A stretch of 64,000 bases of DNA from an uncultured Bacilli bacterium (GCA_934101185.1 CAKOQD010000003.1:855-64854), one strand, 5' to 3'. Counted from the first letter of the stretch, positions 8,644-40,088 are shown. Numbers and translations are program-made. Notes: a model not told the origin generated them from the letters alone.

Positions 8644-8719
8644 TGGTGTCCCGCTGGAGATTCGAACTCCAGACCCTTTGATTAAAAGTCAAATGCTCTA
8701 CCGACTGAGCTAGCGGAAC
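8644..8719 (-). tRNA. tRNA-Lys (anticodon UUU), CCA encoded
   Basis: Minus strand GTTCCGC-TA-GCTC-AGTCGGTA-GAGC-A-TTTGA-CTTTTAA-TCAAA-GGGTC-TGGAG-TTCGAAT-CTCCA-GCGGGAC-A-CCA. This is a clean cloverleaf of 76 nt with anticodon loop C-U-UUU-A-A. Confidence 0.95.
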
Positions 8720-14868: not shown

Positions 14869-15645
14869 TTATTTTGTAATATTTTGATGTTCTTGTAATT
14901 CTTTTTGAAGTTCTAGTGATAGTTTCATACTTTCTTTTATTTTTTCGTATGCTTTTTCTTGTTCTTGTTTTTTAAAATATATATTAGTCATTGCTTCTGC
15001 GCTTTTTAAATTAGTGCTTATATTTTCAGTATTTATTCCTTCTTCATTTAGGTATGATATAGTCATTTTTCCTAGTTCTTTTGCAATACTTTTTAATTGT
15101 TCTTTTTTATCATCTTGAATCATTTTTTCTATATCTAGATATAGTTTATCATTTTCTTCTTTAGTATATTGTTTGAATATTTCATTATTTGTTGCTATAA
15201 TTGACATTGGAAGTTCATAATCAATACCTTCGATTTTGACATAATGAGGTTCTTCGAGTAATTCTTGATTTTTTATTTCATTTTTAAATTCTAGTGACAT
15301 TTGCATACTTGTTTTTATTTTTTCAAACGCTTTTTCTTGTTCTTGTTTTTGTATGTGTATTTTAACCATACTATCTAAAAAGTTTAATTTTGGTGTCATT
15401 TTATTCCATTTTTCTGCGATTTGTCCTTGAGACTCTATTGCAATTTGTTGAATATTCATAGTGCATTGATATTCTATTTCTCTTAGTTCATCTAGTTTTT
15501 GTTCTTTTTCCATTCTTTCTATATCTAAGTAGTTTTTATTGTTTTTTACTAATTTATATTTATTTAGTATATTTTGATTTAGTCCTATTACCATAAGTGG
15601 TAATTCGTATTCTTTATTATTTATTATTATATAGTATTGTTCCAT
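14869..15645 (-). CDS. Hypothetical cytosolic protein made of two ~125-aa tandem repeats
   Basis: 258-aa ORF. Half 1 is YYIIINNKEYELPLMVIGLNQNILNKY...YLDIERME...HIQKQEQEKAFEKIKTSMQMSLEFKNEIKNQ. Half 2 is HYVKIEGIDYELPMSIIATNNEIFKQY...YLDIEKMI...YFKKQEQEKAYEKIKESMKLSLELQKELQEHQ. No family recognised. Confidence 0.6.
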   Translation of the reverse strand: MEQYYIIINNKEYELPLMVIGLNQNILNKYKLVKNNKNYLDIERMEKEQKLDELREIEYQCTMNIQQIAIESQGQIAEKWNKMTPKLNFLDSMVKIHIQKQEQEKAFEKIKTSMQMSLEFKNEIKNQELLEEPHYVKIEGIDYELPMSIIATNNEIFKQYTKEENDKLYLDIEKMIQDDKKEQLKSIAKELGKMTISYLNEEGINTENISTNLKSAEAMTNIYFKKQEQEKAYEKIKESMKLSLELQKELQEHQNITK

Positions 15646-15697: not shown

Positions 15698-16231
15698 TTA
15701 TTTAATGTTTATTCCGTATTTATTTTCTACAGGATCATAGAATATATAGTTTTTTGGAGGATCATAAGTTAGATTTAGTAGTATCATATAGAAGAGAATT
15801 ATTAGAATTATTGATATTTTGTCTAGAATATCTGTTTCTTTTTTTTGTTTTAATAAATAGTAACTTAGTATTTGTTCTAGTAGAATGACTATAAATAATA
15901 AGGATATACTTATTATTAGTTTTTCTCCGATTAGATTGTAAATTGGTAGATATAAAATCAAGTAGACTATTATACTAGTAAATGAGGTTAAGAATAGTTG
16001 GTAAGGATAATTGTTATAGTTTATTTTATTTTTCTTTAGAAGTATTATTTCTATTAATCCCCAAGAAAGTATTCCTGTGTATAAAAGTTTCATATGTTCC
16101 CAGATGCTTTCATTTACAGGAAATAGGATGCTAAATATTGGATTAGGAAACCATTCATATAGGAAATGATAAATAAATGCTAGGACAAAGATGGTTAGTG
16201 TTCCAATTATTTTGATTTTTTTAAGATTCAT
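15698..16231 (-). CDS. Polytopic membrane protein of unknown function
   Basis: 177-aa ORF with about 5 hydrophobic helices and a conserved-looking FPVNESIWEHMKLLYTG segment. Family not confidently recalled. Confidence 0.55.
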   Translation of the reverse strand: MNLKKIKIIGTLTIFVLAFIYHFLYEWFPNPIFSILFPVNESIWEHMKLLYTGILSWGLIEIILLKKNKINYNNYPYQLFLTSFTSIIVYLILYLPIYNLIGEKLIISISLLFIVILLEQILSYYLLKQKKETDILDKISIILIILFYMILLNLTYDPPKNYIFYDPVENKYGINIK

Positions 16232-18849: not shown

Positions 18850-19082
18850 TTTTTTAATTAAAAAACATCTCATCCAAAGGACGAAATGTTCGTGGTACCA
18901 CCTTATTTTGTAATATAATATTACCTTATTCTTATTTAACGCATAAGTACGAATTATTCTACTAATTTCAAATAATTACTCAGAAGCTACCTTCGATTAC
19001 TTTGTATAGTAGTTTTCAGCTTACACTACCTCTCTTTAATACTTAGTAATTTACTCCTCTTCGTCATTGATTTATGAAATAT
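18850..19082 (-). promoter_or_regulatory. T-box riboswitch leader of valS
   Basis: Minus strand carries an AGAGA box (about 19031-19035) and the T-box sequence AAUAAGGUGGUACCACG (GGTGGTACCACG = 18902-18891). Then comes terminator AACAUUUCGU-(7 nt)-AUGAGAUGUU followed by U6 (18890-18858). Candidate Val specifier is GUA at 18990-18988. Confidence 0.85.
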
Positions 19083-23828: not shown

Positions 23829-23851
23829 AAAAAAAAGATGTCTAGCATCTT
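23829..23851 (-). terminator. Rho-independent terminator closing the six-gene orphan operon
   Basis: Minus-strand AAGATG-CTAGA-CATCTT followed by TTTTTT. It overlaps the stop of the last gene (23850). Confidence 0.65.
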
Positions 23852-24356
23852 ACTTACTATTTTCATTTAGTTTATTTCTGAAGTCTTTAATCATTTGCTC
23901 AATTAACTCTTTTTCTTCTAAACAAATAATTTTTTTCTTAGAATATCTATCATCTTTATCTCTTAGTTCTTTTACATAAACTTCATCTATTTCGTAATTA
24001 CCATTTTCTTGAAGTCTCCATTTTTCTTTATCAACGTCTTCATAATTAATTTTATTTAGACCATATAATATTTCTTTTAAGTTTCCTAGCGCAAAATATA
24101 ATGGATTGTCAATACAATTTTTCTTGTTATGATCATCTTCATTTTTTAATACTTTATAGAACTCCTCCACTAAAAATTTTCTTCTTCCTTTCATTAGAAA
24201 GTCTGGATCACTTGTGAATTTTGATTTAGAAAATTCCTGTTCTATGATATTTATATAATCTTCAAAAAAAGTATTACTATCATGATTTTCTTTGTCGTAT
24301 TTTATTAGTTTGTCTACTAGTGTATCTCTATTTAATTTTTTCTTGAACATATTCAT
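23850..24356 (-). CDS. Orphan operon gene 6 (orfF): 168-aa charged cytosolic protein, unknown function
   Basis: ATG 24356 with SD GAGGGTAAG overlapping the TGA of orfE. K/E/D-rich with no TM and no motif recognised. Confidence 0.6.
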   Translation of the reverse strand: MNMFKKKLNRDTLVDKLIKYDKENHDSNTFFEDYINIIEQEFSKSKFTSDPDFLMKGRRKFLVEEFYKVLKNEDDHNKKNCIDNPLYFALGNLKEILYGLNKINYEDVDKEKWRLQENGNYEIDEVYVKELRDKDDRYSKKKIICLEEKELIEQMIKDFRNKLNENSK

Positions 24357-24368
24357 AATTTCTTACCC

Positions 24369-24575
24369 TCAATCTTTAAAAACACTAATTAATCTTTCTT
24401 TGGCTTCATTAACTAATTTTATTTGTTGTTCTAGAAAGCCAATTTCATTAAGACTGTTTGTGATATAATCTTCATATTCTTTTTTATTTCCATCAATCAA
24501 ATCGATTACCGCTAGTAATCCTCTTATTTCTAAGTTTAATTCATTTCTTTTTTTCTCTATTATATTATATTCCAT
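24369..24575 (-). CDS. Orphan operon gene 5 (orfE): 68-aa helical protein
   Basis: The start ATG shares one base with the TAA of orfD (TAATG at 24577-24573). Heptad-like sequence NELNLEIRGLLAVIDLI...FLEQQIKLVNEAKERLI. Confidence 0.55.
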   Translation of the reverse strand: MEYNIIEKKRNELNLEIRGLLAVIDLIDGNKKEYEDYITNSLNEIGFLEQQIKLVNEAKERLISVFKD

Positions 24576-26278
24576 TATCTAGACATACCTCTCATTTCTT
24601 CTTTTAATTCCTCATCAACCATAATATCACTCATGTTTTCAATATTATGCATTTGTTTTGCATATTCTGAAAAACTTAAAAACTCATTTTTATCATTTAA
24701 TGACGCTCTATATTTAATGTATTCTCTGTACACATTATTAGCTTGAGGTTTTATTTGTTCTCTTGATTGCCAGTTCTTATAGTCTGCCATAAATTCATAA
24801 GAAGAATCACTATACCCCACTCTTAAATCATTTAATTGTTGTGGTGTTAAGTCTTCTAACCTAGTATCAGAATTAATAAGTCCGCGACGTTTTTGATCTT
24901 CTAATCCTCTTTCTTCTGGTGTCATATCAGCAATTCTTTTTAATTCTTCTATTTTTCTTTGAATCATTGCTTCCTTATCTATTGGTTTAGAATGCATATC
25001 TCCATTTCTTAATTCATGTTCTTCATCAAAGGCTCCTGATGATTCAAGTTCGCGAATAGCATATTCACGTATTTCTTTCATAACGTCTGCTTTTAATTGA
25101 TCTTCATAAGCAATTTTTTCTTTGGCAGTTTCAACTTTTGCTCTTCGTTCTTGTTGTTCTTGTTGATATTTTGTTTTTCCTGCAACCATAGCTGTTTCTA
25201 ATTGTGTACTTGAGAATTCATATTCGGTCGTAACATCTCTCATAGCTTCTTTTATTTGTTGAATCTTTTCATAATTACCTGGGTTTTCAGACATAACTTT
25301 TTCTAGTTCATATGCTAATTGTTCATATTCCATTATATAAGAATTTTTTAATTTTTTTTGATCTTCTTGCTCTTTTTTTGTTTCGATTTGTTTTTTTATT
25401 TCATTAAAATCAAACTTACTTAAAAATTTGTTAGTTTTTTCTAGTTCGTTTTGATACTTGTTTCCAAGTTGTCTTAAACATGATTCAACTTTTGAAAAGT
25501 CAATTTCTGTTATTTTAGTTAGTTCCGATAATGTATTATTAAGAACAAGCAATGTTTCTTCTAGTCTTGTTTTTGTAACAAATGCTTCCTTTATTGAAGG
25601 AAAATTATCCATAATGTTTTGTGTATTATTATTTTTTTCTAATTGATTATTTTTTATCATTTCTTCTAATGATAACAATAGTAGTTCATCACTATTTTTT
25701 AATTGTATTTCAGTTTGTTTACTACTAATAAAAGAATATTGCATTGCTAAGTTTCTTAGTTGATTTTTTTCTATTTCTTTTATTGCATTATTAAATGATA
25801 TTGTATTTCCTGTATATTGATTAAATTGATTAAAAATTTGAAAGTTATTGCTTCCGATTTTCAATTGATTTAATATCTTTTCTATATTTATAACTCTTTG
25901 TTTAATATCTTCTTTTTTATTCTTATTAACATTTTTTAAACTATTATTAACACTTTCTCTTAATTGTGTTGTTTCTTGTGGTGATAATAATGTTCCTAAC
26001 CTATCAAATTGAGATTTTAATTCTTCTGGTAAAATATATTTATCGTTATCGCCAAACCTTAGGGTTGCAATTGATTGATTTAATTCTGTCAATTTTATTA
26101 TTTGTTCTTGATACTTTTTTATATCGGAATTAATGCTCATTTTATCAAACATTCCCAATTTTTTTGTAGAATCTTTTATTTTTTCTTCACTTTTATCTAA
26201 ATATGTTTTTGATTTTTTTATTCTTTTGTCAAGTTCTTCTTTAATTGAATTAAATAATTCACTATTTTCTATATTCAT
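24575..26278 (-). CDS. Orphan operon gene 4 (orfD): ~567-aa coiled-coil-rich soluble protein
   Basis: Preferred start is MNIENSELF at ATG 26278 (SD GGGGGAG). Long K/E/Q/N/L-rich heptad stretches with no TM. A more globular C-terminal ~130 aa reads ...GLINSDTRLEDLTPQQLNDLRVGYSDSSYEFMADYKNWQSREQ.... Confidence 0.65.
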   Translation of the reverse strand: MNIENSELFNSIKEELDKRIKKSKTYLDKSEEKIKDSTKKLGMFDKMSINSDIKKYQEQIIKLTELNQSIATLRFGDNDKYILPEELKSQFDRLGTLLSPQETTQLRESVNNSLKNVNKNKKEDIKQRVINIEKILNQLKIGSNNFQIFNQFNQYTGNTISFNNAIKEIEKNQLRNLAMQYSFISSKQTEIQLKNSDELLLLSLEEMIKNNQLEKNNNTQNIMDNFPSIKEAFVTKTRLEETLLVLNNTLSELTKITEIDFSKVESCLRQLGNKYQNELEKTNKFLSKFDFNEIKKQIETKKEQEDQKKLKNSYIMEYEQLAYELEKVMSENPGNYEKIQQIKEAMRDVTTEYEFSSTQLETAMVAGKTKYQQEQQERRAKVETAKEKIAYEDQLKADVMKEIREYAIRELESSGAFDEEHELRNGDMHSKPIDKEAMIQRKIEELKRIADMTPEERGLEDQKRRGLINSDTRLEDLTPQQLNDLRVGYSDSSYEFMADYKNWQSREQIKPQANNVYREYIKYRASLNDKNEFLSFSEYAKQMHNIENMSDIMVDEELKEEMRGMSR

Positions 26279-26348
26279 TGTAACACTCCCCCTATTTTTT
26301 AGACTTATCAAATTTTGTTAGAATTGTGATTAAAATTTTACATATATT

Positions 26349-27293
26349 TTAAATTAGTAATCCAATAACTATCACAATAATAGTAATAGCTAATAAAGCT
26401 AATAGTTCTTTTGGAACAATTTTTTTATATTTTACATATTCTTGTTTGATTCTATTACGATCTGATAAATTATTAACTTTCTTACCAATTAAAATATCAC
26501 TTGTTCCAACAAAGGATTCAATATCGTCTTTATAAATTTTCTTATGATTTGTTGTGTCATAACCAGCATATTTTTTATCAGGCATTATGGCATCATAATA
26601 CTTGTCTAGTTTAGATGATGCAACCATACTTCCAATGATATATGATAAGATCAGTGATACTATTGGAAACACTACATATCCTTTTAAAAGAATATTGTTT
26701 AATGTTGGAATAAATAGAAATAAAGTTGTTATAATTATTCCTGGCACCAAGCCGGTCCCAAGTGCTACAGTGTTTGTAATTTTTGTTTTATTTTTGATTA
26801 TGCCATCGTATTTTACTGGTGCATTTAGAATTTTATTTTTTATAAGAGTATATATCTCTTCAAGTTTTGGATCACTGCTTTTTAAATTTAGGCTAATATC
26901 TAGTTTATTTTCTGTGATATGCATTTGAATTGATTGCATATAGTAATTTCTGCTACGATTTGGTTCTGGTGTGATAACATTATAGTTTAATGCATAATAT
27001 ACATGTATAGATTTTATTTCATGAAGTCTACTGTAAAATATTCCAATAAAATTATCATAATTATCAAAAGTAATGTCTGTATTATCATAAAAATCAACAG
27101 TTACTTTCATTTTACTTCCTTCATCTTTAAAAGTATAATTTTTATTTTGTAATTCTAGTGTTCTATTTTTCATTTCTTCTTGTTGAGAGATTTTAAGATA
27201 TTTTTTTAATGTTTCACCCATTAATTGAAATATTTGCATTAAATCATCATTACTTATAATTTTGTTTTCAGCCTTAATCGTATCATTGTACAT
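26349..27293 (-). CDS. Orphan operon gene 3 (orfC): ~314-aa membrane protein (soluble N-domain plus 3 TM)
   Basis: Preferred start is MYNDTIKAENK at ATG 27293 (SD GGAGG 7 nt upstream). There is a ~180-aa N-terminal domain. TM helices are LVPGIIITTLFLFIPTL, VVFPIVSLILSYIIGSMVA and a C-terminal LLALLAITIIVIVIGLLI. Confidence 0.65.
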   Translation of the reverse strand: MYNDTIKAENKIISNDDLMQIFQLMGETLKKYLKISQQEEMKNRTLELQNKNYTFKDEGSKMKVTVDFYDNTDITFDNYDNFIGIFYSRLHEIKSIHVYYALNYNVITPEPNRSRNYYMQSIQMHITENKLDISLNLKSSDPKLEEIYTLIKNKILNAPVKYDGIIKNKTKITNTVALGTGLVPGIIITTLFLFIPTLNNILLKGYVVFPIVSLILSYIIGSMVASSKLDKYYDAIMPDKKYAGYDTTNHKKIYKDDIESFVGTSDILIGKKVNNLSDRNRIKQEYVKYKKIVPKELLALLAITIIVIVIGLLI

Positions 27294-27345
27294 TTTGTTA
27301 CCTCCTGCTAAATTGTATATCATTATGGTTTAAATTTACTATTTT

Positions 27346-27738
27346 TTATACAAATTTAATTATAAAGAATGTTACTGCGAATACTAGCACTATTAGTAAG
27401 AGTGTTACTGATAGTGTTAATACTGTTGATAGACCATTTTGATTAGTATACCCACCTTGAGTTGTTTGATAGTTTGAATAATTTGGATAATTGTTGTATG
27501 TTGGTTGTTCATTATTTACTATTGGTCTTATTGCTTGATTTGAGTTTAATTGTCTTGATTTTACTAATTGTTTTTCTTGAGTTTGTTCCATTCCATTTCC
27601 TTGGTAGTTATTTGTTTGATTTTGAAATTGATATTGTGATTGATTTACTTGATCAAGTGACTTTTTTACGCTTGTTATGACTGTGGGAATATTTTCTAAG
27701 AATTTGTCTTCTGCAAAATCAAAAAGATTTTTATTCAT
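27346..27738 (-). CDS. Orphan operon gene 2 (orfB): ~130-aa Q/N-rich tail-anchored membrane protein
   Basis: Preferred start is ATG 27738 (SD AAAGGTGGGG lies inside the last codons of orfA, and the track start is a GTG within that SD). Q/N/Y/T-rich low-complexity region QSQYQFQNQTNNYQGNG...NNEQPTYNNYPNYSNYQTTQGGYTNQNG. Single C-terminal TM is LSTVLTLSVTLLLIVLVFAVTFFII. Confidence 0.6.
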   Translation of the reverse strand: MNKNLFDFAEDKFLENIPTVITSVKKSLDQVNQSQYQFQNQTNNYQGNGMEQTQEKQLVKSRQLNSNQAIRPIVNNEQPTYNNYPNYSNYQTTQGGYTNQNGLSTVLTLSVTLLLIVLVFAVTFFIIKFV

Positions 27739-27739
27739 A

Positions 27740-28345
27740 TTATTCCCCACCTTTCATTATTCTTTGTGTTTTTTTAACTATTACTGATGTTACTTTTTTC
27801 ATTTGTTCATCGTTTAGATTATATGGTTTTAGTGATGTTTTTACATCGTTTTTTACTTTGTCTATAAAGTTATCTTTATAATAATCTGAGAATGATTTAG
27901 TATAGTCCATTCTTAAGAATATGCTTATAAAATAATCTTGCAACCAGTTTGGAACTTTACTCATATAGTCGTTAAAGTTTTCTAGTGCCATTAGATCGTT
28001 AAATACAGCGCTATGATCTTCGTTTACATACCATCCAAGTACCATAAGAGCAAATGATATTCTTTTATGTTCAAAGGAACTTTTACGATCTGCCATCAGA
28101 CTTATTCCTGTATTTACTCCAGCGATTGTTTTATCTGTTGTTGCAAATAGGTTGTCTGATAGAATTATTTCTCCGGTTGATGTATTTATTCTTATTTCGT
28201 CTAAGTTAATTCTAACTAATGCTCTTGGTTCTTTTTCTATAGCATCACATACTACTTTCATTAGACGACAAAAAGTCTGTGCTTTATAAGCATAATTGTC
28301 TTTATTATTTATAAATTGTCTTAATGATACAATATTATTATCCAT
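27740..28345 (-). CDS. Orphan operon gene 1 (orfA): 201-aa cytosolic protein with a degenerate protein-kinase C-lobe-like pattern
   Basis: ATG 28345 with SD AAGGAG 8 nt upstream. ...ALVRINLDEIRINTSTGEIILSDNLFA..., HKRISFALMVLGWYV and WLQDYFISIFLRMD resemble Hanks-kinase subdomains VIb-VII, IX and XI, but the catalytic residues are lost. This is an inference by eye. Confidence 0.6.
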   Translation of the reverse strand: MDNNIVSLRQFINNKDNYAYKAQTFCRLMKVVCDAIEKEPRALVRINLDEIRINTSTGEIILSDNLFATTDKTIAGVNTGISLMADRKSSFEHKRISFALMVLGWYVNEDHSAVFNDLMALENFNDYMSKVPNWLQDYFISIFLRMDYTKSFSDYYKDNFIDKVKNDVKTSLKPYNLNDEQMKKVTSVIVKKTQRIMKGGE

Positions 28346-28368
28346 AGCCTATACTCCTTATCATAGTC

Positions 28369-28400
28369 ATTATAGCATATTTTTTTTTGATAATAAACCT
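28369..28400 (-). promoter_or_regulatory. Extended -10 promoter of the orphan operon
   Basis: Minus strand AAAAAAAAATATGCTATAAT (TGcTATAAT at 28377-28369), 24 nt before the orfA ATG, in the 76-nt gap after sigH. It shares an 18-nt identity with the valS promoter. Confidence 0.5.
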
Positions 28401-28421: not shown

Positions 28422-29033
28422 TTACTGTAGAATTTTGTCTAAGTATGTGTTTTCTAAATCTAGTTTTTTTAGATATTTTTTTAGTTTTTGTTTAGTTCTG
28501 AAGATAGAATTATCTACTTTTTTTGTGTTTATATCTAGTATTTTTGCTATATCTTGATAAGTCATTGATGATAGTTTCAAAAGAAATATTGCGGAGTCTT
28601 GAGCATTTAATTTAGTGTTGAAATCTTTTAATATTTCTGTTAAGTAGTAATCATAATATGTTGATAGTAATGGATCTTGTTCTTCACATAGTTCGTATTT
28701 TGAGATGTCTGCGACTAAGATTTCTTTTTGATATCTTTTATATCTTCTTTTATAGTAGTCATTGCATGTATTTTTTAATGCTGTGGATAGATATGGATAG
28801 AATCGATTGTTTTCATCTGTTTTATACATTCTTATTGCTTTATAGAGTGTTAATCTCATTTCTTGTAGTAAGTCTTCATGATCTATTGATGCTTTTACTC
28901 CGTATGTTTTTTGATAATAAAAAGCAAGGTATTTTAATAATGGTTCGTATTTTTCCATTATTATTTTCCATGCTTCTTCATCGTTTTCTCTTACCATGTA
29001 GATAAGTTCTTCGTCATTTGTTTGGTATTGCAT
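28422..29033 (-). CDS. sigH: RNA polymerase sigma factor, SigH-like
   Basis: 203 aa. The region 2 pattern DLLQEMRLTLYKAIRMYKTDENNRFYPYL aligns with B. subtilis SigH DIVQEGMIGLYKSIRDFKEDKLTSFKAF. The region 4 pattern MTYQDIAKILDINTKKVDNSIFRTKQKLKKYL aligns with SYQEISDELNRHVKSIDNALQRVKRKLEKYL. The conserved synteny cysS-mrnC-rlmB-sigH supports the call. Confidence 0.8.
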   Translation of the reverse strand: MQYQTNDEELIYMVRENDEEAWKIIMEKYEPLLKYLAFYYQKTYGVKASIDHEDLLQEMRLTLYKAIRMYKTDENNRFYPYLSTALKNTCNDYYKRRYKRYQKEILVADISKYELCEEQDPLLSTYYDYYLTEILKDFNTKLNAQDSAIFLLKLSSMTYQDIAKILDINTKKVDNSIFRTKQKLKKYLKKLDLENTYLDKILQ

Positions 29034-29750: not shown

Positions 29751-30128
29751 TTAATTATTTATGTTTACTATTTCTTCAAATATTTCATTTATTCTTTCTT
29801 TGTTATTGTAATATAAATAACCAATTAATGTTTCAAATGCAGTTGCATGTTTATAGGTTAATATATCACAGTTTTTTGGTTTTGAATTTACTTTGGTATT
29901 TCTTCCTTTTTTTACTATTTCTAGTTCTTCTTCAGTTAGTTTATTTTCTTTTATTAGTTCGTTTAGAATATGTGCTTGTCTTTTTGCTGTTACAAATTCT
30001 AAACTTTTTGTTTGTAGTTCATTTACTTTTTTGTTTGTCTTATTAAGAAGATAATCTCTTACTAGAGTTTCGTAGACGCTATCTCCGATATATGCTAGTT
30101 GCAGTGGTGAATAAGTAGTATTAGTCAT
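29751..30128 (-). CDS. mrnC: Mini-ribonuclease 3
   Basis: 125 aa. LQLAYIGDSVYE... and ...YKHATAFETLIGYLY. Position matches Bacillus yazC/mrnC. Confidence 0.85.
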   Translation of the reverse strand: MTNTTYSPLQLAYIGDSVYETLVRDYLLNKTNKKVNELQTKSLEFVTAKRQAHILNELIKENKLTEEELEIVKKGRNTKVNSKPKNCDILTYKHATAFETLIGYLYYNNKERINEIFEEIVNINN

Positions 30129-30786
30129 TGTTAGTCATTGATAATAATCTTAGTACTTCAAGTATTGTGCTGGCAAGGCTTGCTACATATGTAAGGGCTG
30201 CACTTGTTAGTACTTTTTTAGCGTCTTCTACTTCTTCTTTTTCTAGAATGTTATATTCTTCTAGATATTTTAGGGCATTACGAGATGCACCAATTTCTAC
30301 TGGTAATGTTACTAATTGAAATAGTAATATAATCATTAGAAGAATTATTCCAAAGTATATTAATTGAAACATTCCTAGGATGGCTCCGAGTAGTACTACT
30401 ATGTAACCCATTTTAGTACTAAAGTTTACAAATGGAACTAGGAAGCTTCTTATTCTCATGAATTTGTTTTTATTTTTATCTTGAATTGCATGACCGCATT
30501 CATGTGCCGCTACGGCGATTGAGCTTATGCTGTCTCCATCAAAAACATTATGAGATAGTCTTACTACTTTTGCTTTTGGATCATAATGATCTGTTAGGGT
30601 TCCTTGTGTTTCTACTACATATAGTTTTTCTAAGTTATTTTTTTCTAGTATTTTTTTTGCTGTTTCAAAACCACTTAATTTGTTTTTGCTTTGTATTTGG
30701 CTGTATTTTGAATATGTAATGTTGATGTATATTTGTGCTATAACTGTTATTAATAAAGATATTATTCCTAGTGTGTAATATATCAT
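30121..30786 (-). CDS. Membrane zinc metallopeptidase, YugP-like (putative neutral zinc metallopeptidase family)
   Basis: 221 aa. N-terminal TM, HExxH motif AAHECGHAIQD, and two C-terminal TMs. There is an 8-nt overlap with mrnC. Confidence 0.75.
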   Translation of the reverse strand: MIYYTLGIISLLITVIAQIYINITYSKYSQIQSKNKLSGFETAKKILEKNNLEKLYVVETQGTLTDHYDPKAKVVRLSHNVFDGDSISSIAVAAHECGHAIQDKNKNKFMRIRSFLVPFVNFSTKMGYIVVLLGAILGMFQLIYFGIILLMIILLFQLVTLPVEIGASRNALKYLEEYNILEKEEVEDAKKVLTSAALTYVASLASTILEVLRLLSMTNND

Positions 30787-40033: not shown

Positions 40034-40088
40034 TTTGCATCTCCTTCCGCCATGACATTTAAGTCATAGTAATAATTAATTCTTGTAT

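Follow-up and report, generated by a model that had tools for sequence, protein, structure and literature searches.

We analysed a cluster of six open reading frames (ORFs), orfA to orfF (here A to F), that lies between a sigma factor gene and uvrA in DNA from an uncultured Bacilli bacterium (GCA_934101185.1 CAKOQD010000003.1:855-64854); the window is this whole stretch of 64,000 nucleotides. An earlier account made from the sequence alone (the sequence-only reading) had taken the six genes for one self-contained operon. Our results indicate that the cluster is probably a composite of an ancestral gene pair, A-B, and an inserted block, C-F, which have separate histories. ORF calling placed six co-directional ORFs on the minus strand, from 28345 down to 23850, with products of 201, 130, 314, 567, 68 and 168 aa, and gene callers had reported the same products on identical public contigs. 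The genes, the signals around them and the borders of the block are as follows.

28422-29033, minus strand: SigH-like sigma factor gene of the sigma-70/extracytoplasmic function (ECF) superfamily, 203 aa, the conserved upstream neighbour of A
28377-28369, minus strand: extended -10 promoter element TGCTATAAT (TGcTATAAT), read from the sequence
27740-28345, minus strand: orfA, 201 aa, predicted soluble and kinase-C-lobe-like, without N-lobe or catalytic Asp
27346-27738, minus strand: orfB, 130 aa, Q/N-rich, with a predicted C-terminal transmembrane (TM) tail anchor
26349-27293, minus strand: orfC, 314 aa, soluble N-domain plus three predicted TM segments
24575-26278, minus strand: orfD, 567 aa, mostly helical orphan protein
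24369-24575, minus strand: orfE, 68 aa, translationally coupled partner of D
23850-24356, minus strand: orfF, 168 aa, charged and soluble, found with D-E in some relatives
23852-27345, minus strand: probable lineage-specific insertion of 3,494 bp with the genes C to F, placed after the B stop codon and before the B terminator
27334-27345, minus strand: left terminal direct repeat AAAATAGTAAAT, matching the right repeat at 11/12 positions
23852-23863, minus strand: right terminal direct repeat AAAATAGTAAGT, matching the left repeat at 11/12 positions
23829-23851, minus strand: weak intrinsic terminator, hairpin AAGAUG-CUAGA-CAUCUU plus U8, following the F stop codon

The composite history emerged from comparison with related genomes. 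When all six proteins were searched by tblastn against 27 species-level genome loci that had been found with the A profile, C, D, E and F were recovered in only one of them, L007, whose A is 96% identical; the block was absent from the four sister species L008, L009, L010 and L012, in which A is 88-97% and uvrA 95-99% identical. Junction alignment showed that in these four the B stop codon directly abuts the AAGATGCTAGACATC-T8 terminator, which is followed by the uvrA promoter, and that the window has 3,494 bp (27345-23852) between that stop codon and the terminator. The sequence-only reading had seen neither an insertion nor a flanking repeat at this place; the empty sites of the four sisters are precise, and the insert has AAAATAGTAAAT at its start and AAAATAGTAAGT at its end, a terminal match that was equalled in 2 of 2000 shuffles. 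The right repeat supplies most of the last four sense codons of F, and the F stop codon takes its first base from it. In L027, a fifth sister species, the B/uvrA junction holds genes for an acyl-CoA synthetase and a hybrid histidine kinase, and the site thus accepts different cargo in different species.

The terminator at 23829-23851 is originally that of A-B, and its hairpin stands directly after the B stop codon in the empty site (-7.0 kcal/mol). That this terminator exists, as had been claimed, was borne out by its retention in five sister species; it is weak, however, since its 6-bp hairpin in the window (-5.2 kcal/mol) was not better than that of shuffled sequence, and it was not picked up by a consensus scan. 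Scanning for consensus promoters and terminators was uninformative in this AT-rich DNA, with 28 sites observed versus 37 expected.

C-F might instead have been ancestral at the site and have been lost from the sister species, an explanation that we consider quite improbable. The direct repeats at its ends could mediate such a deletion, and the synonymous divergence (dS) of the block equals that of the flanking genes, so it is not very recent; but a deletion would leave one copy of the repeat, and the four structurally identical empty sites have none. Other cargo at this site in L027 also speaks against an ancestral block, as do more distant relatives that have A-B-secA without C-F and the nearest homologues of C, D and F, which are 73-75% identical and lie in other neighbourhoods. 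The lack of a repeat copy at the four empty sites also counts against our own reading, since neither a target-site duplication nor a simple deletion between the repeats fits it. A second point to be set against separate histories is that C and D-E lie within a few kb of each other both in L045 and in the window, and a functional link among C-F is conceivable.

The organization of the six genes was as the sequence-only reading had described it, with ORF calls, public gene callers and the sequence all in agreement. A ends in GGT GGG GAA TAA, with 1 nt between its stop codon and the ATG of B; TAATG is common to the D stop and the E start; and a GAGGG Shine-Dalgarno sequence overlaps the E stop codon. 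The extended -10 element is present as reported and is conserved, 20 relatives whose A is 54-97% identical having TGnTATAAT or TGnTATACT approximately 22 nt before the A start. The TGCTATAAT promoter probably serves A-B and, by read-through, C-F as well, because folding revealed no hairpin in the B-C or C-D spacers that would separate B, C and D. Ratios of nonsynonymous to synonymous substitution (dN/dS) against L007 were 0.064 for A, 0.07 for C, 0.16 for D and 0.17 for F, indicating purifying selection.

Tight packing of co-directional genes between one promoter and one terminator, with no internal hairpins and with purifying selection on all six genes in both lineages that show this order, is what would be expected if the genes formed a single, self-contained membrane-associated system that evolved as a unit. 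The distribution of the genes makes this highly improbable. The six-gene order exists only in the window species and L007, and four sister species have A-B, the terminator and uvrA without C-F. A-B is found without C-F in more than 20 species, and all other contexts examined that contain C, D-E or F have no A-B. The sequence-only reading had itself proposed asking whether the six genes co-occur in relatives, naming scattered occurrence as evidence against a single system; they proved to be scattered, A-B by the sigma gene and C, D-E and F elsewhere. Its suggestion of an envelope, division or sporulation role did not hold up either, as nothing was found that links the cluster to any of them, and its statement that there was no compositional shift was roughly true, although GC content is 0.21-0.26 within C-F as against 0.30-0.34 in uvrA (overall approximately 28%). 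An insertion just upstream of a terminator can thus make unrelated genes resemble one operon.

The composite reading is further supported by where the parts of the block occur in other genomes. C has 308 homologues, and among the 120 matches listed these are 64-98% identical and nearly all 311-314 aa long. In every other context examined (L040-L045), C directly follows a conserved ORF of 179-180 aa, which is absent from the window; its neighbours there are other orphan genes and, among these contexts, never the sigma gene or A-B. The 179-180-aa orphan ORF (L040 7426-7965, L042 7431-7970, L044 7428-7967, L045 1650-2192) is 47-70% identical among loci. In L042 (3259-13400) the pair formed by this ORF and C belongs to an orphan-gene block that begins immediately behind smpB and also encodes a KilA-N protein. 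D has 157 homologues, which are 46-100% identical among the 120 matches listed, and D-E was found after topA, after the gene of an AI-2E transporter, in a region that contains an ISL3 element, and after CutA1, isochorismatase and metallo-beta-lactamase (MBL) hydrolase genes in three loci that represent two or three lineages (L036 and L130 have nearly the same neighbourhood). In the lineages whose D has 46-48% identity, a spacer of 12-20 nt separates D-E from the upstream gene for an MBL-fold (Apyc1-like, PF23023) hydrolase (L036 9258-9980, L129 9270-9989, L130 9258-9980), which the CutA1 and isochorismatase genes precede in what looks like an operon-type arrangement. Outside the window type, F directly follows D-E only in L045-L047 (73% identical), where the order is a 331-aa ORF, D, E, F and a SIMPL gene; it is absent after D-E in L034, L036, L129 and L130, and weaker homologues (33-43% identical) occur elsewhere in the L038 and L040 regions.

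At the DNA level, the window from 26275 to 23861 (D-E-F) is 80-82% identical, contiguously, to L045-L047, and homology to this donor-type block ends at 23861. The DNA of C matches L040-L045 separately, and in L045 three genes lie between C and D that are missing in the window. From these separate matches, C-F in the window appears to be a shortened extract of an accessory region that more distant relatives possess. Protein clusters of at least 82% identity number 25 for A, whereas above 75% identity, among the matches listed, C has one cluster and D three, which indicates that close relatives are without C and D. The dS of C-F against L007 was 0.10-0.13, the same as that of the flanks, and with dN/dS of 0.07-0.17 this indicates that the insertion predates the split between the window species and L007 and that the genes have been maintained by selection.

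We therefore suggest the following course of events. C-F would have been put together from parts of an accessory chromosomal region that in more distant relatives has the order 179-aa ORF, C, further genes, D, E, F and SIMPL. In the common ancestor of the window species and L007 it would then have become inserted after the B stop codon and ahead of the B terminator, and would since have been passenger cargo, read through from the A promoter and kept by selection; nothing pointed to joint action of C-F with A-B. ORF calls and Pfam revealed no integrase or transposase in the insert, and no relative of D was found in phage records (tblastn) or viral contigs (scan), plasmids not having been searched; C-F thus has neither the recombinase, the repeats at the empty site nor, as judged from D, the viral relatives by which an integrative mobile element is recognized.

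Within the inserted block, D and E most likely form an obligate complex of a long helical protein and a small helical subunit. The translational coupling of E to D noted in the window was confirmed, since E follows D with the same stop/start overlap at every D locus examined. E is 73-88% identical where D is 46-74% identical, and its mean column identity is 87%. The conserved overlap and the better conservation of E than of D both argue that D works with E. The AlphaFold2 (AF2) model of D has a mean predicted local distance difference test (pLDDT) score of 87.8 and is nearly all helical, with two small hairpins; it had no significant Foldseek match in the PDB or BFVD. The best conserved part of D is its C-terminal ~190 aa.

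A large protein followed by a small, coupled and better conserved partner could also be a selfish or defensive cassette (toxin-antitoxin, toxin-immunity or anti-phage), in which case the insertion would be a small defence-island event. Patchy distribution (157 clusters for D versus 314 for A), the different cargo at the B/uvrA junction across species, and neighbours that in some cases include AbiE, DUF3800, an ISL3 transposase and a HerA-like DUF87 protein would suit such a cassette. We nevertheless consider it unlikely: D-E has no PADLOC or PHROG match, no relative in phage records or viral contigs, no enzymatic motif and no fold match; D is conserved at its C-terminus, the opposite of polymorphic toxins; and D-E stands stably after CutA1-isochorismatase-MBL genes of housekeeping type in three loci from two or three lineages. 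A polymorphic-toxin interpretation, based on DUF1963/YwqG neighbours taken to be immunity proteins, was dropped because DUF1963/YwqG has been described differently, as TYPP domains with a proposed chaperone-like role (PMC4275035).

The orphan-gene block of L042 contains other pairs of a large protein and a small overlapping ORF (394+84, 516+71 and 593+95 aa). The possibility that D-E is one of many paralogous large-plus-small pairs was rejected, as hhalign showed no relationship between D, E or F and the remaining large and small proteins of these regions. A 394-aa repeat protein of L042 (5459-6643, minus strand) ends in ...GGISR, and the ending is ...QGGRSR in many D homologues (for example P0140) and ...RGMSR in the window D; these endings may represent a shared C-terminal motif.

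We turn to the ancestral pair. Together, A and B amount to one tail-anchored membrane protein in split form, with B as the detached anchor of A. A has 314 homologues, and a HMMER scan of 1.84 billion representative proteins with A yielded 31 clusters, five of which (298-326 aa) are single proteins in which a linker joins the A domain to a C-terminal TM segment; the gene for one such fusion again lies directly 3' of rlmB-sigma. Because relatives have both fused into one protein, A is expected to work with B. A B-like ORF of 98-178 aa comes after A, and often overlaps it, in 15 relatives that are more distant, where secA is the next gene; these ORFs have a low-complexity region and a C-terminal TM segment. 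In line with the sequence-only reading, TM prediction gave one C-terminal segment in B (residues 100-130) and two central segments plus one C-terminal segment in C; none was predicted in A, D, E or F. B had also been considered as a divergent SecE because of its position, which was rejected: it has no SecE Pfam match, and in relatives secE lies separately after the A-like gene.

The order rlmB-sigma-A was found in all loci of the 27-locus set that have upstream sequence, with A at 54-97% identity, and among these loci no A-type gene lay away from a sigma gene. This view was widened by scanning metagenome contigs with a sigma profile. Among 71 classifiable sigma loci, nine had A-type genes and 26 had, directly after sigma, a one-piece tail-anchored A homologue of 186-272 aa; the remaining 36 had no A-like gene, most of them running straight to (rpmG-)secE-nusG in the manner of Bacillus. 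Remote homology of the one-piece proteins to A was supported by profile comparison, in which hhalign aligned them over 128 columns with 91% probability and an E-value of 1e-6, and by the reciprocal search, in which a one-piece hidden Markov model matched window-type A at an E-value of 6e-7. Sigma adjacency holds while the downstream gene varies (secA, secE-nusG, whiA-region genes or uvrA) and down to approximately 26-30% sigma identity. The one-piece proteins, seen in L065, L074, L109, L112, L124, L126 and 20 more metagenome loci, carry motifs such as LKYIH..GY.V..F.P..I and YYSDY and are encoded between the SigH-like sigma gene and secE-nusG; they belong to no Pfam or NCBIfam family.

The sigma factor itself had been called SigH. 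It is SigH-like by its position after rlmB, which is syntenic in all relatives, and not by curated membership: only the NCBIfam sigma70-ECF superfamily model was passed (75 bits), and scores against the NCBIfam SigH equivalogs were 53-56 bits with cut-offs of 208-295. Thus, the positional part of the claim stands and the family assignment does not. Region 2.2 reads SIDHEDLLQEMR and retains an acidic DHED motif.

None of the six proteins belongs to a characterized family, in agreement with the sequence-only reading. Searches of Pfam, NCBIfam and PHROGs gave zero matches for all six, PADLOC anti-phage models gave zero matches for all six at E-values up to 1, and PDB sequence profile searches with A, C, D, E and F returned no match. 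The same four collections (Pfam, NCBIfam, PHROGs and PADLOC) gave nothing informative on approximately 30 neighbouring orphan proteins of related regions. The AF2 model of A is mixed alpha/beta, and the best 50 Foldseek matches in the PDB were all protein kinase domains, among them STK40, WNK3, PERK, KSR2, ASK1 and PknB, with template modelling scores of 0.3-0.4. The alignment shows apparent remnants of the catalytic loop (RINLDEI(K/R)IN), of the DFG region (D-x-LF) and of alpha-F (SFALMVLGWY). A begins at about the hinge/alpha-D-E region, with no N-lobe within its 201 aa, and in the catalytic-loop equivalent RINLDEI an invariant N47 takes the position of the catalytic Asp. The description of A as a kinase-C-lobe-like pseudoenzyme, first made from the sequence alone, is in our view fair but weakly supported, the E-values of all matches being 0.2 or worse.

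How might A-B function? In the explanation that we propose, A-B is ancestral and would consist of a non-catalytic cytosolic domain derived from a kinase C-lobe and anchored by its tail through B; its gene, with its own conserved extended -10 element, lies directly downstream of the SigH-like sigma gene in every locus with upstream sequence, over a broad range of uncultured gut Bacilli. As a membrane-tethered binding partner of this sigma factor, A-B would act either as an anti-sigma-like sequestering protein or as a modulator of its activity. It is possible, at somewhat less than an even chance, that A-B is such a partner. Several points tell against it. The model of A is of moderate confidence (pLDDT 69.5) and its kinase matches are non-significant; A contains no known anti-sigma domain; and the linkage of sigma and A is one of synteny in loci from related uncultured gut Bacilli lineages, so the adjacency could be inherited and not functional.

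Accordingly, A-B might be a membrane scaffold or pseudokinase adaptor that has nothing to do with sigma and shares an inherited position with it, which we regard as rather doubtful. This would agree with the sigma-A-type promoter that A has of its own, independently of the gene upstream, with the absence of a recognizable anti-sigma domain from A, and with the DHED retained in region 2.2, by which the sigma factor would not have to rely on a kinase-type activator (criterion of PMC8999054). It agrees less well with an adjacency that survives both the change of the downstream gene and the divergence of sigma to approximately 26-30% identity, or with the absence of any A-type gene away from sigma among the loci with upstream sequence.

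The six genes should not be pursued as one unit, and two leads remain, the A-B family and the D-E pair. To our knowledge, the control of SigH/ComX-type sigma factors outside model organisms is poorly known, and the A-B family is a concrete, testable candidate regulator of them. Tentatively, A-B and its one-piece relatives could be an undescribed, kinase-C-lobe-derived family of tail-anchored proteins dedicated to the control of the SigH/ComX-type alternative sigma factor across many uncultured gut Bacilli and, separately, D-E could be a clade-specific two-subunit complex with a new fold. If this were true, the A-B family would be a new structural class of sigma-factor partner. D-E offers a clean target for work on structure and function, with a confident model of D and nothing alike in the PDB or BFVD.

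The cluster is preceded by clpC, gltX, cysS, a Zn-peptidase gene, mrnC, rlmB and the sigma factor gene; on its downstream side come uvrA, lgt, a thioredoxin-reductase-like gene and valS, which has a T-box, and beyond them rpsL-rpsG-fusA-tuf. Human gut metagenomes, Hadza samples among them, contained the exact A protein on 23 contigs, with unchanged gene order. Related loci came from metagenome-assembled genomes (MAGs) labelled uncultured Bacilli, Tenericutes, Mycoplasma or Erysipelotrichaceae; the contigs of L009, L021 and L024, which clearly belong to the Bacilli clade, sit in MAGs labelled Muribaculaceae, Bacteroidaceae and Lachnospiraceae, labels that probably reflect binning contamination. 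The Zn_peptidase_2 membrane protein gene (30121-30786), which lies between cysS and mrnC and overlaps the mrnC start, breaks the Bacillus-type cysS-mrnC-rlmB order and is conserved in relatives. Between valS and rpsL are a 258-aa ORF without a Pfam match (14869-15645) and a gene for a DUF6512 protein (15698-16231). Rfam detected the T-box leader that precedes valS, a ribosomal-protein leader of the L31 type that only just reached its threshold, and a single tRNA gene; these features of the window lie at 18874-19076, 40041-40069 and 8647-8719.

Compared with the order sigH-rpmGB-secE-nusG of Bacillus, the window shares the upstream array clpC-gltX-cysS-mrnC-rlmB-sigma, and many relatives with the SigH-like sigma gene run directly into rpmG-secE-nusG. 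In contrast to Bacillus, roughly half of the lineages sampled carry a gene for an A-like tail-anchored protein between sigma and the next gene, and the genus of the window has secA or uvrA next, not secE-nusG. For D-E, toxin-antitoxin and toxin-immunity cassettes provide an analogy in that a large gene and a small downstream gene share a stop/start overlap in several neighbourhoods, but D-E matched no known toxin, antitoxin, immunity protein or defence protein by family, fold or motif.

EssB/YukC of the Firmicute type VII secretion system is a cytosolic pseudokinase with a TM segment, and A-B would resemble it as a dead kinase-like cytosolic domain on a single TM helix in a Firmicute. However, A has no YukC/EssB Pfam match, EssB is absent from its best 50 Foldseek matches, and the neighbourhoods seen contain housekeeping genes only, with no EssC or WXG100 gene; moreover, A would correspond to the C-lobe only and has no extracellular domain.

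ECF sigma factors of group ECF43 are encoded next to a transmembrane Hanks-type Ser/Thr kinase, as in EcfP/PknT of Vibrio parahaemolyticus and EcfK/PknS of Xanthomonas citri, a pairing that was recognized through microsynteny (PMC8999054). In the window, similarly, the gene for a sigma factor of sigma-2/sigma-4 type adjoins a gene for a membrane-anchored protein of putative kinase type, and the microsynteny is conserved. A, in contrast, lacks the N-lobe, has N47 for the catalytic Asp and D-x-LF for DFG, and has no Pkinase Pfam match; without N-lobe and catalytic Asp it should be unable to phosphorylate. ECF43 sigma factors lack the acidic DAED motif in region 2.2 and need phosphorylation (PMC8999054), whereas the sigma factor of the window keeps DHED at this position. 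The anchor of A-B also differs, being a C-terminal tail with no extracytoplasmic sensor domain.

Finally, a membrane anti-sigma factor is the commonest mode of ECF regulation (PMC8999054). A literature search for a SigH anti-sigma factor returned nothing relevant. A differs from anti-sigma factors of the RsiW/RslA type in that it has no match to zf-HC2, RskA or other anti-sigma models of Pfam or NCBIfam and no HxxxCxxC motif (it has 2 Cys and 2 His); its model is mixed alpha/beta and kinase-like and not a four-helix anti-sigma domain, and A-B has its own promoter and almost no extracytoplasmic part. What A-B has in common with the RsiW/RslA type is a gene directly downstream of sigma and a cytosolic N-terminal domain with a single TM segment, and the combination of membrane anchor and sigma adjacency that marks class I anti-sigma factors is present in A-B, through B or in the fused forms.

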